Position numbers and translations under genes: made by a program. The notes below the pieces were generated by a model. The model saw only the letters and a list, made by a program, of their open reading frames with translations, was not told where the DNA came from and did not search any database. A DNA stretch of 7,121 nt from a virus. Lineage: Duplodnaviria; Heunggongvirae; Uroviricota; Caudoviricetes. Positions 2,392 through 7,121 of this stretch are shown piece after piece (position 1 is the stretch's first letter; each line of letters begins with the position of its first letter). The stretch lies in the IMG/VR virus record IMGVR_UViG_2648501841_000011, positions 1-7,121 of that record, one strand, 5' to 3'.

Positions 2392-3257
2392 TCACTTTTC
2401 CGATACAACACGGCGGGAAGAATCAGTAATCTGTCGAACAATATCCCGGTGCTTGTTCAGCTCCCGCAGCGCGGCGCAGACTCGCTCCCACTTCTGAACA
2501 TCACTTTTCGCCCTGCGCAGCGCCAGGTTTGCCCTGCGAAGGGACGGAAAAATCAGCTCATCTGCTTGCGTTTCGGTAAACGATGGCAACGGCTGCACAA
2601 TGTCCGCCACAGTTTCTGTTTTAATTTCTTCCTGTGTTGCGGCTTCCCGGACTGGTAACGCAGCACCTGCTGGCTGAGGAAAGGCCTTACCATCATTTTT
2701 CGTTACCGGCGCGGCTTTCGGATCTGCTGGTAAATTACCCCCCGACATGCAGTAACGAAATTTACCGTTCTGATTAACGCGNNNNNNNNNNCTTTCCGTT
2801 ACCAGCGCGGCTTTCGGCTCTGCTGGTAAATTATCGCCCGGCATGCAGTAACGAAATTTACCGTTCTGATTAACGCGTGCCAGCCGCCCCGTTGCGGTTA
2901 CCACCGCCAGCGTGGAAGCAACCTTGCGAGTACTGACGCCGAACTTACCCGCCAGTTCCTCACACGTTTTAGCACCATCCTGACCGATAAACTCAACCAT
3001 CATGTCTGCGGTAACTTTTGGAGCGACCTCTTCGGTTACCACATCCGGCGCTTCAGGTTGTAGTGCCTGCCCTTCGGTTACCCCGGCTTCACCTTCGACA
3101 GCCAGAAACCAGGTGTGACCCGTTTTATCAACAACGCCATTTTTTTGAGTTCCCACAGTTCGTTAAGAACTTCTTCACGGCTGATATCAAGCCGCGCCGC
3201 CAGTTCAACAGAATTGGCTTTTCCCATCGCTTTCAGTGCATGCAATACAGTTTCCAT
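2392..3257 (-). CDS. phage protein with winged-helix-like N-terminus and an internal 32-aa tandem repeat; reading frame broken by a 1-nt frameshift at an A7 tract (plus-strand T7 at 3140-3146) and containing a 10-N gap (2782-2791)
   Basis: ATG at 3255-3257 (minus) with GAGGT SD encodes [39 protein letters not shown], then reaches the A7 run; that frame stops at 3078-3080 (59 codons), while the other frame (ORF track 2392..3156) continues [18 protein letters not shown]... for 249 codons. One extra A, or a -1 slip, would give about 288 aa. Position directly downstream of the dnaC-like gene. Confidence 0.6.
2686..2877. repeat. 96-bp tandem direct duplication (2 copies) inside the coding sequence; the first 10 nt of copy 2 are masked as N
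   Basis: 2697-2781 and 2793-2877 align at a 96-nt offset with a few mismatches, encoding twice the peptide [12 protein letters not shown](P/S)G(D/G)NLPA(E/D)PKAA(L/P)VT; N run at 2782-2791. Confidence 0.85.
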
Positions 3258-3282
3258 CGAAAATTTACCTCGTCAAAAATTC

Positions 3283-4023
3283 TCACATACCCTGACGTCC
3301 AACGTTTGACCGCCAGCTCTCCCAGTTAAAATTCACCCAACGACCACCATTCATGGTCATACGGTCCATCACCCGATCTCCGAGGAGTGTGCTCATCGCT
3401 GCGTGATTCAGGTTCGTCAGCATTCCGACACTACACATCGAAGCCGTTCTGCGGTCGACTATCTGGTTCAGCGTGACCTGCTCGTTGCGCGTATCCCGCT
3501 GCATGCCAATTTCATCAAGGACCAGAAGGTCAACTCCACAAAGCTCCTGTAAAAATTTTTCCCCGGACTGGCCGTTGTCGTAGCCGTCATGCAACACGCT
3601 CATGACATCGGACACGGTGACGATAATCACGCTTCTCCCCTTCGCCATCAGCCGATTGCCAATCGCTGCTGCCAGGTGATTTTTACCGGTACCAGGTTTA
3701 CCGCTGAACACGAAGTTTGTACATCCGGTCATCAATTCATCGGCAATGGATTTCGCCTGGCTCAGAGCATGGCGCTGACCGTCGTTCTGCACCCGGTAGT
3801 TCCCGAATGAGCACTTCCTGTGAAGCGGCTGGATGCCCGCACGGTTCAGGATTTTTTCAACCCGCACCTGATGATTCAGGCGGTTAATCTCCTCGCTGCG
3901 TTTTCGTCGTTCAGCAAGTTGCCATTCCCGCCACTCCTCCACCGTCCGGTACGGTGGAACCGCCCCCTGTGGTGCAAGTCTGCGAATACGTTCAAGAACC
4001 CCAACTGCCGCAATGTTTTTCAT
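3283..4023 (-). CDS. DnaC-like replicative helicase loader (IstB-like AAA+ ATPase)
   Basis: 246-aa ORF; Walker A GKPGTGKNHLAAAIG and Walker B LLVLDEIG; GGGGG SD upstream of the ATG; immediately follows the replication initiator gene, as in the ydaU-ydaV-type arrangement of Rac-like prophages. Confidence 0.9.
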   Translation of the reverse strand: MKNIAAVGVLERIRRLAPQGAVPPYRTVEEWREWQLAERRKRSEEINRLNHQVRVEKILNRAGIQPLHRKCSFGNYRVQNDGQRHALSQAKSIADELMTGCTNFVFSGKPGTGKNHLAAAIGNRLMAKGRSVIIVTVSDVMSVLHDGYDNGQSGEKFLQELCGVDLLVLDEIGMQRDTRNEQVTLNQIVDRRTASMCSVGMLTNLNHAAMSTLLGDRVMDRMTMNGGRWVNFNWESWRSNVGRQGM

Positions 4024-4029
4024 GACACG

Positions 4030-4992
4030 TCACCCCCTGAATCCCGGCGGTATTTCAGTGTCCGGTTCAGAAATGTGATTCACGCAACGCTGCGCGGGCG
4101 AACGCCCCAGGCGGATAACCAGTTCATCCCATTTTTCCCGGAGTTTTGCCGGACTCATGATGTTTTTTACCCAGAACGAATCCCGCTGGAGACGCCCAAA
4201 CATTTCACAAATTTGTCTGTGAGTTCTGCCATCCAGCATCCGCATTGTCCGCACGTCATTGGCCCATGCAGTCCAGTTGGGTTCTTTCGGTCTCGTGATC
4301 TCGCCATCATCGCTGGCCGCCTGCTCGTAAAGACTCACGATTCGTCCCCAGATCCACTGTGCGCACACCAAATCTTCCTGACTTCCCCACTGGCGTTTTT
4401 TCGCACTGAACACAACCGCGTCAGGGTGTCGGGTTAAAAAATTCTGTTCAGCCGTCTGCGGGTCCGGTTGCGAAGCGTCCGGACAAGAAGATCTTTTATC
4501 TGACGGATCAGGTTTTAATACTGACGGATCGGGGTCAATCATCGCCCCCCTAATCGGCAGTTTGTTATCAACAGTTGATCCATCAAAATTTGACGGGTCA
4601 ACCGTTGAGGGGGCAATATTTGACGGGTCAACTGTTAACGGGTCATTTTTTGCCGGGCTAATTTTTCTTTTCGGTTTATATGACTCACGCGCCGCCGCAG
4701 CAGCTGCTTCGAGTTTTTCCACATTAAGCCGATAGATATTGCTTACATTACGCCCACCGACCTTACGCTCTTCCTTCGTCAGCCAGCCCTCTTTCGCCAG
4801 TTCTGCAATAGCCGATTTCACTGTGGATTCACTTCTTGCACCGATCTGACGCCGGATAGTTTCAATGGCAGGCCATGACACGCCCTCGTCATTGCTGTAG
4901 TCTGCAAGACGGGCCATAACCGCCACCCTGGATAAGATCATGCCGGTGAAGGCGCACCCTTCCCAGACAAGACCATGAAGCTTGCTGCTCAT
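4030..4992 (-). CDS. phage replication initiation protein (lambda O-like role): N-terminal winged-helix DNA-binding domain, low-complexity linker, C-terminal domain
   Basis: ATG at 4990-4992 (minus) with GGGGG SD; the ORF track's GTG at 5007 is rejected. N-terminus ...LSRVAVMARLADYSNDEGVSWPAIETIRRQIGARSESTVKSAIAELAKEGWL is typical of HTH-type replication initiators; gene order cro-like / cII-like / initiator / DnaC-like. Confidence 0.85.
   Translation of the reverse strand: MSSKLHGLVWEGCAFTGMILSRVAVMARLADYSNDEGVSWPAIETIRRQIGARSESTVKSAIAELAKEGWLTKEERKVGGRNVSNIYRLNVEKLEAAAAAARESYKPKRKISPAKNDPLTVDPSNIAPSTVDPSNFDGSTVDNKLPIRGAMIDPDPSVLKPDPSDKRSSCPDASQPDPQTAEQNFLTRHPDAVVFSAKKRQWGSQEDLVCAQWIWGRIVSLYEQAASDDGEITRPKEPNWTAWANDVRTMRMLDGRTHRQICEMFGRLQRDSFWVKNIMSPAKLREKWDELVIRLGRSPAQRCVNHISEPDTEIPPGFRG
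4495..4690. repeat. putative origin of replication: iteron-like repeats inside the initiator gene (TGACGG(A/G)TC x4; palindromic TCAACnGTTGA-type sites x3 at exact 30-bp spacing) next to an AT-rich stretch
   Basis: TGACGGATC at 4501 and 4522, TGACGGGTC at 4591 and 4621; TCAACAGTTGA 4568-4578, TCAACCGTTGA 4598-4608, TCAACTGTTAA 4628-4638; T-rich run 4644-4680. They encode the repetitive linker (VDPSN...STVDPSN...) of the initiator, like lambda ori lying within gene O. Confidence 0.45.
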
Positions 4993-5014
4993 AAAACCCC
5001 CGAACACCGTGCTT

Positions 5015-5440
5015 TTAGTGCATCACCACAGCATTCCCTGCCGGGCCGCCGCGATTCATCTGGTCATACAAAACAACCGCTGACGCAACAAAATCATCGA
5101 CATCCTTCACCAGCCGATCCCTCCGTTCGACGATCTCACGGTAATATTCAGAACTGTGGCTGCGCATACGGGCCACCAGCAAAGGCGGCATCGCCTTTTC
5201 GATCGCCGGTAACAGAGCCTGCATTTTTTCAACAGCATCAGGGGTGTCTTTATCCAGCCAACGGAAAATTTTCTGGGTATTACGGGCCAGGGCTTCCGGA
5301 TGGCTGTCGTCATACAGTTCCGGGAACGTCATTCCCAGCTCGAAATACGCTTTGGTAATTTTCGCAGCCGGTACTTTTTCGCCGTCCGGATGCGCCCAGA
5401 CATTCATCGCCATGCGGATGTGTTCATGCTTGATTTTCAT
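5015..5440 (-). CDS. ydaT: YdaT-like protein (reported from memory as a CII-like regulator partner of YdaS in Rac / CP-933P-type prophages)
   Basis: 141-aa ORF beginning MKIKHEHI...; its ATG overlaps the stop of the upstream cro-like gene (ATGA overlap at 5437-5440); position second in the early-right operon. Family assignment by recollection of YdaT sequences, not by search. Confidence 0.7.
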   Translation of the reverse strand: MKIKHEHIRMAMNVWAHPDGEKVPAAKITKAYFELGMTFPELYDDSHPEALARNTQKIFRWLDKDTPDAVEKMQALLPAIEKAMPPLLVARMRSHSSEYYREIVERRDRLVKDVDDFVASAVVLYDQMNRGGPAGNAVVMH

Positions 5441-5739
5441 GAATCAACTCCATCAGATAAGCATGCACTACAATCACCTTCAGCATGAACTACATGTGTT
5501 TGCCCCAAACGAATGCCGCTCGCATACTCAGGCCAAATAAGCTCCCAATCATGGGGTCGTAGCTCCGCCCTACTTACTTGGCCTTCCGTCGCAGATTCGA
5601 TCATAAGGGCGCGGGTTGGAGATATAGCTGTTCGTCCAGACGCCATTTGCGATAAGTAAGATGGCGATACACCAAGTCTGGCCGCGAATTTCTTAGCATC
5701 ACCAACCCTTAATGATTTAATAAACTCTTTTAATGTCAT
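5437..5739 (-). CDS. ydaS: Cro-like HTH regulator of the YdaS family
   Basis: 100-aa ORF with GAGGAAGG SD; HTH segment FAARLGVSPSYLSQMASGRTAISPTRALMIESATEGQVSRAELRPHDW matches the YdaS-type signature (LGVS...G.R.I...RA..IE.AT.G.V.R.ELRP.DW); divergent from the repressor gene. Confidence 0.85.
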   Translation of the reverse strand: MTLKEFIKSLRVGDAKKFAARLGVSPSYLSQMASGRTAISPTRALMIESATEGQVSRAELRPHDWELIWPEYASGIRLGQTHVVHAEGDCSACLSDGVDS

Positions 5740-5836
5740 ACCTTCCTCGGTTTAGTGTTTTTTTGCGAGTTTAGTGTTTAATAAACCATTAAGTCAAGTA
5801 TTTGCTTGTTTAGTGATTACTAAAGATAATTACCAC
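5740..5836. promoter_or_regulatory. divergent promoter/operator region between cro-like and cI-like genes with three GTTTAGTG(T/A)TT repeats
   Basis: GTTTAGTGTTT at 5750-5760 and 5769-5779, GTTTAGTGATT at 5808-5818 (the last within the palindrome TTTAGT-gatt-ACTAAA, 5809-5824); plus-strand TTGCTT (5802-5807), 17-nt spacer, GATAAT (5825-5830) ends 6 nt before the paaR2 ATG. Confidence 0.6.
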
Positions 5837-6208
5837 ATGCAAAAAAAAGAAATTCGCCGTTTACGTCTCAAGGAGTGGTTTAAAGATAAAACTCTGCCAC
5901 CCAAAGAGAAGAGCTACCTATCTCAACTAATGAGTGGGAGAGCCTCGTTTGGAGAAAAGGCTGCCAGAAGAATAGAGCAAACATACGGGATGCCGGAAGG
6001 GTATCTGGATGCGGAATACGCAGAACAACCGGGGGGTTCTCCACCACATGCAGGGTTAACGTCTAATCAACTGGAATTATTGCAGATTTTTTCAGCCTTC
6101 CCTGAGGATGAGCAACGCCAGATAATCAGCGAGTTAAAGCAGAAAAAAGAATCAATGGAAGATCTCATAGCGAGATGGATTGCGGCGCAAAAATGCCGCC
6201 GCGCCTGA
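5837..6208 (+). CDS. paaR2: PaaR2-like HTH transcriptional regulator in the CI-repressor position; first gene of the paaR2-paaA2-parE2 module
   Basis: 123 codons from ATG 5837; N-terminal CI/Cro-type HTH (EKSYLSQLMSGRASFGEKAARRIEQTYGMPEGYLD); the ORF track's GTG start at 5774 lies inside an operator repeat and is rejected; the -10 element abuts the ATG, suggesting a leaderless transcript. Confidence 0.8.
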   Translation: MQKKEIRRLRLKEWFKDKTLPPKEKSYLSQLMSGRASFGEKAARRIEQTYGMPEGYLDAEYAEQPGGSPPHAGLTSNQLELLQIFSAFPEDEQRQIISELKQKKESMEDLIARWIAAQKCRRA

Positions 6209-6228
6209 GTTATAAAACCGGAGGAAAC

Positions 6229-6420
6229 ATGAATAGAGCCCTTTCACCAATGGTTTCTGAATTTGAAACCATTGAACAAGAAAACAGTTACAACGAATGG
6301 CTGCGTGCGAAAGTAGCAACGAGCCTTGCAGATCCGCGCCCAGCAATTCCCCATGACGAAGTTGAGCGCAGAATGGCAGAACGCTTTGCTAAGATGCGCA
6401 AGGAACGGAGCAAGCAGTAA
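6229..6420 (+). CDS. paaA2: PaaA2 antitoxin (63 aa), partner of ParE2
   Basis: ATG at 6229 with GGAGG SD 5 nt upstream; peptide MNRALSPMVSEFETIEQENSYNEWLRAKV... recognised from memory as PaaA2; its stop (6418-6420) is 1 nt from the parE2 ATG. The ORF track's upstream ATG at 6175 lies inside paaR2 and is rejected. Confidence 0.8.
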   Translation: MNRALSPMVSEFETIEQENSYNEWLRAKVATSLADPRPAIPHDEVERRMAERFAKMRKERSKQ

Positions 6421-6421
6421 A

Positions 6422-6700
6422 ATGTTACCCGTGTTATGGCTTGAAAGCGCAGATACCGACCTAGATGATATAACTAGTTATATTGCTCGTTTCGACATAG
6501 ATGCGGCTGAACGCTTATGACAGCGATTAAGGGGTTGTGTGCTGCCGTTATCCGAACATCCGTATTTATACCCACCAAGCGACAGAGTACCTGGCTTGCG
6601 TGAGATTGTAGCCCACCCTAACTATATAATTCTATACCGCGTAACAACATCAAGCGTTGAAGTAGTAAACGTGATCCACGCAAGACGCCAGTTTCCCTAA
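6422..6700 (+). pseudogene. parE2: parE2 (ParE/RelE-superfamily toxin) interrupted by an in-frame TGA at codon 33 (6518-6520)
   Basis: ATG 6422; N-terminal 32 codons MLPVLWLESADTDLDDITSYIARFDIDAAERL, then TGA; the same frame continues without a stop as QRLRGCVLPLSEHPYLYPPSDRVPGLREIVAHPNYIILYRVTTSSVEVVNVIHARRQFP to TAA at 6698-6700. Both halves have ParE-like character; 279 nt in total would give a 92-aa toxin if the TGA were a sense codon (TGG is one transition away). Confidence 0.7.
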
Positions 6701-6718
6701 CTTTCACTACCAATAGAA

Positions 6719-6765
6719 ACATAACAACCGCAACGACTTTATCAAAAGCGTTGTGTTTGTTATGT
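6719..6765. other. long inverted repeat / hairpin downstream of parE2 (ACATAACAA ... TTGTTATGT arms with nested CAACG/CGTTG)
   Basis: Perfect 9-bp arms at 6719-6727 and 6757-6765 with an internal sub-palindrome; begins about 19 nt after the parE2 stop; no clear U-tract, so terminator function is uncertain. Confidence 0.4.
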
Positions 6766-6771
6766 CCCGCG

Positions 6772-6812
6772 GTTTAGTTTTTACTTGACTTAAGTTTAAT
6801 GTTTATTAAACT
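6772..6812 (+). promoter_or_regulatory. putative rightward (PL-like) promoter with a fourth operator-like motif: GTTTAGTTTTT (6772-6782), -35 TTGACT (6784-6789), -10-like TAAACT about 16-17 nt downstream
   Basis: One-mismatch copy of the intergenic operator motif immediately upstream of, and overlapping, a sigma70-like hexamer pair on the plus strand. Confidence 0.35.
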
Positions 6813-7121
6813 AAAAATACCAACCCACCCCGCCCCACAGAACGCAGGGAAATACTTCGAGTTACCCGGCAGTGGTCAGGGGTTAAGTAGCCAGCCCGAG
6901 GCGTATGAACATGACGGCAGGGTTCAACTTTAATAACTATGCAGCAGGTTTTTGTTCCGCTACCCCGGCGTTAAGGGGAAACAGAGGGTTTCTCAGTGGG
7001 CGAAGTCAAACATCAGAATGGAAGGCATCCCGGGATCGGCAAAGAAGCAGCAATGGCGCTTTATATTGACATCAGCGCCATTGCAGGACAGGTAAGAGTT
7101 ATCAGAGCGGTAACTAAGCGG

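Follow-up and report, generated by a model that had tools for sequence, protein, structure and literature searches.

The DNA analysed here carries a three-gene toxin-antitoxin (TA) module, paaR2-paaA2-parE2, whose toxin gene (parE2, 6422-6700, + strand) contains an in-frame opal stop and is a pseudogene or a strongly hypomorphic allele. The whole stretch that was analysed (the window, 7,121 nucleotides) corresponds to the entire contig LCWU01000070.1 of draft assembly GCA_001006425.1, in the same orientation.

The immunity region around paaR2 and paaA2

To the left of the module, three genes are encoded on the minus strand: a Replication-O-like gene (4030-5007), ydaT (5015-5440) and ydaS (5437-5739). 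The 141-amino-acid ORF of ydaT matches PF06254 (YdaT_toxin), and its counterpart in matching reference loci is annotated as 'toxin YdaT family protein'. The 100-amino-acid ORF of ydaS matches PF15943 and is divergent from paaR2. These genes are the CII and Cro analogues, respectively, of the CP-933P immunity region, where YdaS has a Cro-like and YdaT a CII-like role (PMC8630535).

The intergenic region between ydaS and paaR2 (5740-5836) is exactly 97 bp long and represents the operator/promoter region with PR933P, PRM933P and GTTTAGT repeats. In the published system, the 97-bp intergenic region likewise contains PR933P and PRM933P, and PL933P is located beyond the TA genes (PMC8630535). A promoter-like TTGACT-18-TAAACT element is present on the ydaS side of the operator region (5797-5768, - strand), and GTTTAGT occurs at 5750, 5769 and 5808. 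Downstream of parE2 (6772-6812, + strand) are a PL933P-like promoter (TTGACT-16-TAAACT, 6785-6812) and an operator half-site (GTTTAGT, 6772); the hexamers are the same as those of the PR933P-like site of ydaS. Position 6772 is G in the window and A in strain PV15-279. In total, the window contains six GTTTAGT matches compared to 0.79 expected. The two that fall within an AT-rich island near the left end (761 and 841) probably reflect its base composition.

The repressor gene paaR2 (5837-6208, + strand) is intact and encodes a CI-like protein of 123 amino acids with the N-terminus MQKKE. Its coding sequence is identical to that of reference loci (L001, L017 and L018). We found no Shine-Dalgarno sequence for paaR2 (anti-Shine-Dalgarno duplex of -0.9 kcal/mol), as expected for a leaderless gene. 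The antitoxin gene paaA2 (6229-6420, + strand) is also intact (63 amino acids; PF21217 PaaA2, 70.7 bits) and is preceded by a strong Shine-Dalgarno sequence (GGAGGA, 6220-6225; -9.5 kcal/mol). A single nucleotide separates its stop codon (6418-6420) from the parE2 ATG at 6422, where the duplex is of moderate strength (-5.8 kcal/mol).

A preliminary description of this DNA had proposed that paaR2 and paaA2 are full length and have good start contexts. Both genes are indeed full length and identical to the references, and the start context of paaA2 is as described. For paaR2 the term is unfit, because the gene is leaderless and its ATG is the transcription start, with the protein beginning MQKKE (PMC8630535). 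The proposed module identity is borne out by gene identity to the CP-933P type. A leaderless paaR2 heads the operon and is divergent from ydaS-ydaT over 97 bp, a PaaA-family antitoxin gene is immediately upstream of and translationally close to the toxin gene, and the toxin gene encodes a ParE2 (ParE_toxin) homologue. Furthermore, there are no differences to the reference genomes between positions 3909 and 6520. Therefore, paaR2, paaA2 and all operators are wild type.

Codons 2-4 of paaR2 fall in a tract of eight A residues (5841-5848) directly after the leaderless ATG. Three IMG/VR contigs carry seven A residues at this tract, which would frameshift the repressor. These variants represent either homopolymer sequencing errors or a slippage-prone site.

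The parE2 frame and the rarity of its stop codon

The parE2 frame begins with ATG (6422-6424) and includes 32 sense codons (6422-6517) before it reaches TGA (6518-6520), which is followed by a C. The same frame then continues for another 59 sense codons (6521-6697) to TAA (6698-6700). These values reproduce the frame coordinates and codon counts given earlier. When the stop is masked, the product is identical to ParE2 in PDB 5CW7 and 5CZE at 91 of 92 residues (E = 3e-58), and the sole mismatch to 5CW7_B is position 33, which is Trp in the reference. Likewise, alignment to O157:H7 chromosomes reveals a G-to-A change at 6520 as the only difference within parE2. Thus, the single TGG-to-TGA transition (Trp to stop) that the preliminary description had offered as the simplest explanation is verified at both the protein and DNA levels, and the alignment that it recommended for codon 33 returns Trp, encoded by TGG, in the references.

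With Trp restored, ParE2 matches the Pfam ParE_toxin profile (PF05016) with 60.9 bits. The 32-residue product is confined to profile positions 1-28 of 89, and its score of 17.5 bits is below the 23-bit Pfam cut-off. An uninterrupted 92-amino-acid ParE frame is therefore missing from the window because of the TGA at codon 33, and the gene calls of the source record include nothing over parE2. The minus strand of 6422-6700 holds only two ORFs of 34 codons, both without support.

Past the stop is a possible re-initiation ORF (6526-6700, + strand), in which an SD-like TAAGGGGT (6526-6533) precedes a GTG at 6539. This ORF encodes 53 amino acids (ParE2 residues 40-92) and ends at the TAA at 6700. 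The anti-Shine-Dalgarno duplex before the GTG (-7.8 kcal/mol, versus -5.8 kcal/mol at the parE2 start) can be read against sampled window positions, 2.6% of which have values of -8 kcal/mol or lower and 7.3% of which have values of -6 kcal/mol or lower. The 53-amino-acid ORF matches PF05016 positions 38-89, and an exact look-up of its sequence returned no match on record.

We then consider how widely the TGA allele is distributed. The 61-nt segment surrounding the stop is present in 588 complete E. coli genomes, none of which has the TGA, and the best whole-gene matches among 618 genomes are each one mismatch away. A 40-mer containing the TGA (GATGCGGCTGAACGCTTATGACAGCGATTAAGGGGTTGTG) has no exact match in IMG/VR, JGI metagenome contigs or GTDB species representatives, whereas the corresponding TGG 40-mer is present in 48 IMG/VR contigs. 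The 41-mer context of position 6520 has G 51 times and A never among the compared loci. Moreover, each of the 46 other scorable loci has an intact parE2 with no more than one amino-acid substitution, but most of these loci were fetched through a TGG pattern, and so this set is informative only for the rest of parE2. The gene is single-copy in genomes (median of 1 place), and a database-wide protein search returned many full-length ParE relatives.

Six contigs with an exact match to the 32-amino-acid product had raised the prospect of a recurrent break at codon 33. This candidate was rejected because these contigs merely end at 6517-6519; an exact search with a partial gene selects for contigs that end there. 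The W33* allele is private to one draft contig, and the allele itself appears undescribed so far.

The source contig and the origin of the stop codon

The contig is a scaffold, with a run of 10 Ns (2782-2791) located within a DUF1627 gene. The 85 nt on each side of this gap (2697-2877) are two diverged copies of one segment, and they yield a false internal duplication in a 254-amino-acid ORF (2392-3156, - strand). To the left, positions 299-2695 show 100% identity to another type of O157 prophage, in which hok/sok and an AT-rich alpha/beta-hydrolase island occur together with the paralogous parE1 module. To the right is CP-933P-type DNA. The linkage between the two sides may be a scaffolding chimera, or it may be real, given that in two IMG/VR contigs the left-hand DUF1627 variant (100% identical over 2596-2781) is continuous with the CP-933P side.

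Compared to the closest complete genome (strain NCCP 13914), positions 2842-7121 have only two differences, at 3909 and 6520. The change at 3909 (C to G) causes a G39R substitution in a DnaC/IstB-like ATP-binding protein and is also private to this contig; its context in the other compared loci has C 27 times and G never. The exact DnaC-like protein (3283-4023, - strand) is on record in no other contig. A further variant, at 3435 (R197C), is common to the window and strain NCCP 13914 only.

Several other features of the contig were observed. Relative to PV15-279, a 1-bp deletion near 3140 divides the DUF1627 gene (about 3078-3257 and 2392-3156, - strand) into two frames. The gene is annotated as 'frameshifted' in the closest complete genomes (L017 and L018), and so this pseudogene is shared by a lineage, unlike the parE2 stop. 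At the left end is a hok/sok type I TA locus (78-402, - strand) with a 70-amino-acid Hok ORF (78-290, - strand) and an overlapping sok match (RF01794, 112.6 bits, 228-402, - strand). Mismatches to O157 references cluster at 66-298, at the contig end over hok/sok. Between hok and the DUF977 gene is the AT-rich island (about 431-2340; GC of 0.31-0.37 compared to about 0.5 elsewhere), which holds a gene for a 257-amino-acid alpha/beta hydrolase (838-1611, + strand). O157 prophage DNA matches this island at 100% identity, and CP-933P-type references lack it.

The A at 6520 probably reflects a real mutation. It is considerably less likely, but still deserving of weight, that the strain truly carries TGG and that the A entered the consensus of a low-quality draft assembly by error. 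The W33* allele is known from one record only, this record is a 7.1-kb scaffold with 10 Ns, an unmerged 85-nt overlap and two joined prophage types, and neither private variant is reproduced in Logan read assemblies. Mismatches are concentrated at contig ends, but position 6520 is interior to the right-hand contig and outside any homopolymer. The second private coding SNP (3909) is 2.6 kb away, and two private SNPs in 4.3 kb are probably more than would be expected between close O157 genomes, which could hint at consensus errors. However, 2842-7121 otherwise agrees with the references except for this one base, and therefore the consensus is not generally noisy. In addition, no genuine spontaneous change is more common in E. 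coli than the G-to-A transition, which counts against an artefact. Cross-talk from a paralogue during assembly was considered as a source of the A and rejected as unlikely, since parE2 is single-copy with no close paralogue able to donate the base, and parE1 has Lys at the aligned position and DNA that does not align to the TA region. A laboratory construct was likewise rejected: the genes into which the mBio study introduced ochre stops are paaR2 and ydaS rather than parE2, and the window consists of a 7-kb contig from a chromosomal prophage.

We therefore favor recent single-hit pseudogenisation of parE2 in a known CP-933P/Sp12-type module, with a probability of about 0.7. The draft genome would come from an O157:H7-like E. 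coli with a cryptic lambdoid prophage of CP-933P/Sp12 type, in whose immunity region a single G:C-to-A:T transition at 6520 would have changed the TGG codon for Trp33 of ParE2 to opal TGA. Translation would normally stop after 32 of 92 residues. The ParE fold comprises an N-terminal alpha-hairpin and a beta-sheet core (10.1101/2025.07.24.666505), and the truncated peptide is predicted to retain helix 1 and part of helix 2 of the hairpin without the core. Judging from sequence, we infer that this peptide should fail to fold and lack toxicity. The toxin-inactivated state proposed in the preliminary description is thus the natural inference from a product that has 32 of 92 residues and covers only ParE_toxin positions 1-28 of 89.

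The truncation predicts that the module loses post-segregational killing. Addiction by this mechanism has been demonstrated for the RAE2 locus (paaR2-paaA2-parE2), and stabilising of the immunity region has been proposed (PMC8630535); if addiction is lost, this proposed stabilising would be lost too. PaaA2, which is unstable and degraded by ClpAP and ClpXP, would be made without a partner. No polarity on other genes is expected because parE2 is the last gene of the operon. PaaR2, YdaS and YdaT would run the CI/Cro/CII-like switch essentially unchanged. An altered switch behaviour had been suggested for this locus, but the PaaR2/YdaS/YdaT core is untouched, and the bistable switch is built from these three proteins (PMC8630535), so only a modest regulatory effect is expected. 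The part of the suggestion that stands is that partial co-repression by the PaaA-ParE complex, as attributed to Hallez 2010 in a review (PMC4803016), would be lost. PaaA2 has no DNA-binding domain, and ParE2 activity was undetectable in either state of the switch (PMC8630535).

The stop might also be leaky rather than inactivating, although we regard this as improbable. UGA in E. coli is prone to misreading by Trp-tRNA, and the parE2 stop has the context UGA-C. Misreading at a few per cent would give full-length ParE2 at a low and cell-variable level, and thus a hypomorphic module, perhaps with a 53-amino-acid fragment made from the GTG at 6539. No other stop codon in E. coli is as leaky as UGA, which tRNA-Trp can decode; readthrough measured in K-12 was about 2% at 37 C and 4% at 25 C and varied strongly from cell to cell (PMC10570021). 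The prfB frameshift site has UGA-C as its conserved slippery stop context, whereas a U at +4 makes for strong termination (PMC5289835). Because the lost codon was Trp, readthrough would rebuild wild-type ParE2, and so 'null' may be too strong a word for an allele with this weak stop. The stronger version of this idea holds that the W33-opal allele is a 'dimmer' and not an off-switch, with a few per cent of ParE2, cell-variable and cAMP-dependent in K-12, acting as sub-threshold stochastic toxin under full antitoxin; it is quite improbable. The readthrough figures come from K-12 and from contexts other than the UGA-C of parE2. Moreover, K-12 has a weaker RF2 variant and readthrough may be lower in other strains, which counts against a leaky toxin. 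With PaaA2 produced upstream at an undiminished level, ParE2 amounting to a few per cent would be fully titrated, and a functional consequence of trace readthrough is unlikely. The SD-like element could permit re-initiation at GTG 6539 to yield the 53-residue C-terminal fragment, but both the GTG and this element are also present in wild-type alleles. Furthermore, the sequence downstream of the stop is identical to that of TGG alleles, and therefore nothing has evolved to promote recoding. Selenocysteine insertion or other programmed recoding was rejected, since no Rfam recoding element or family was found at the gathering threshold and all homologues examined have TGG and an identical downstream sequence.

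Most improbable is the selective reading of the preliminary description, in which toxin loss was favored while antitoxin and repressor were kept, creating a stable state of anti-addiction or cross-immunity against incoming ParE2 prophages. Anti-addiction by chromosomal antitoxins is an established idea, which counts for this explanation, and paaR2, paaA2 and the promoter region are indeed intact. However, the allele is private and its surroundings are near-identical to functional alleles, with no sign of retention or spread. A toxin-less state that is shared by a lineage or has persisted for long was not found, as the allele is present in one contig and in none of 588 genomes, and its flanks are one other base off. 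There has accordingly been no time for paaR2 and paaA2 to decay, and their intactness is uninformative. For this reason, the claim that PaaR2 is 'kept' and that PaaA2 'persists' as an orphan does not hold for one draft contig whose 4.3-kb flank has a single other difference; an intact antitoxin and regulator beside a broken toxin do not amount to 'retention' when a single private SNP accounts for the break. Each PaaA antitoxin also acts only on its own ParE. According to the review's account of Hallez 2010 (PMC4803016), there is no cross-neutralisation between PaaA1 and PaaA2, so cross-immunity is plausible only against the cognate ParE2. An intact module gives this same immunity, and so toxin loss adds nothing.

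Overall, the W33* allele of parE2 is either an ordinary loss-of-function mutation, probably of very recent origin, or a base-calling error. TA decay classically begins with a premature stop in the toxin gene beside an intact antitoxin gene. Under recent single-hit pseudogenisation, the event would be this first step of ordinary decay, very recent, without sign of selection and confined to a single isolate. If the base call is real, the isolate is a naturally occurring parE2-null whose CP-933P immunity region is otherwise wild type. It would then be a convenient control for two published proposals: that the TA genes protect the immunity region from rearrangement, and that the PaaA2-ParE2 complex adds a partial co-repression. 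The allele otherwise has little significance beyond the strain itself.

Comparison with known systems

Both the system and the kind of lesion are already known, as the locus is a characterised paaR2-paaA2-parE2 module with a one-base private variant. The RAE2 module of CP-933P (strain EDL933) and Sp12 (strain Sakai) has the same genes, order, spacing and neighbours as the window. The CP-933P locus likewise has ydaT-ydaS divergent over 97 bp, a leaderless paaR2 and a PL-like promoter downstream. The paaR2 and paaA2 DNA is identical, and ParE2 (PDB 5CW7, 5CZE and 5CZF) is the same at 91 of 92 residues. The differences are that the TGA at 6518-6520 cuts the toxin of the window to 32 residues, and that the module of the window is joined via an N gap to another prophage type.

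The O157:H7 paralogue paaR1-paaA1-parE1 of CP-933M-type prophages has the same three-gene architecture and the same ParE and PaaA families. In O157, the parE1 module is flanked by DNA of the type found in the left 2.8 kb of the window (hok/sok, alpha/beta hydrolase and DUF977). ParE1 has 95 amino acids with a Lys aligned to Trp33, its DNA has no alignment to the TA region of the window, and PaaA1 does not neutralise ParE2, again as Hallez 2010 is reported in PMC4803016. At one parE1 locus with no toxin gene listed, a pseudogene was suspected, but the DNA is intact and the gene is merely absent from the gene calls.

The layout also resembles the lambda immunity region (cI-rexA-rexB / cro-cII). 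PaaR2 is the analogue of CI and is also leaderless, YdaS is the analogue of Cro, YdaT is the analogue of CII, and paaA2-parE2 occupy the rexA-rexB slot (PMC8630535, PMC9986795). Unlike in lambda, PaaR2 has no autocleavage domain and the passenger genes are a TA pair, not an exclusion system; there is no sequence similarity between the two regions.

Finally, decaying type II TA loci likewise carry a premature toxin stop beside an intact antitoxin gene. Unlike these loci, the lesion in the window is one private SNP without further decay or spread. The parE2 stop thus documents an event and not an evolved state.
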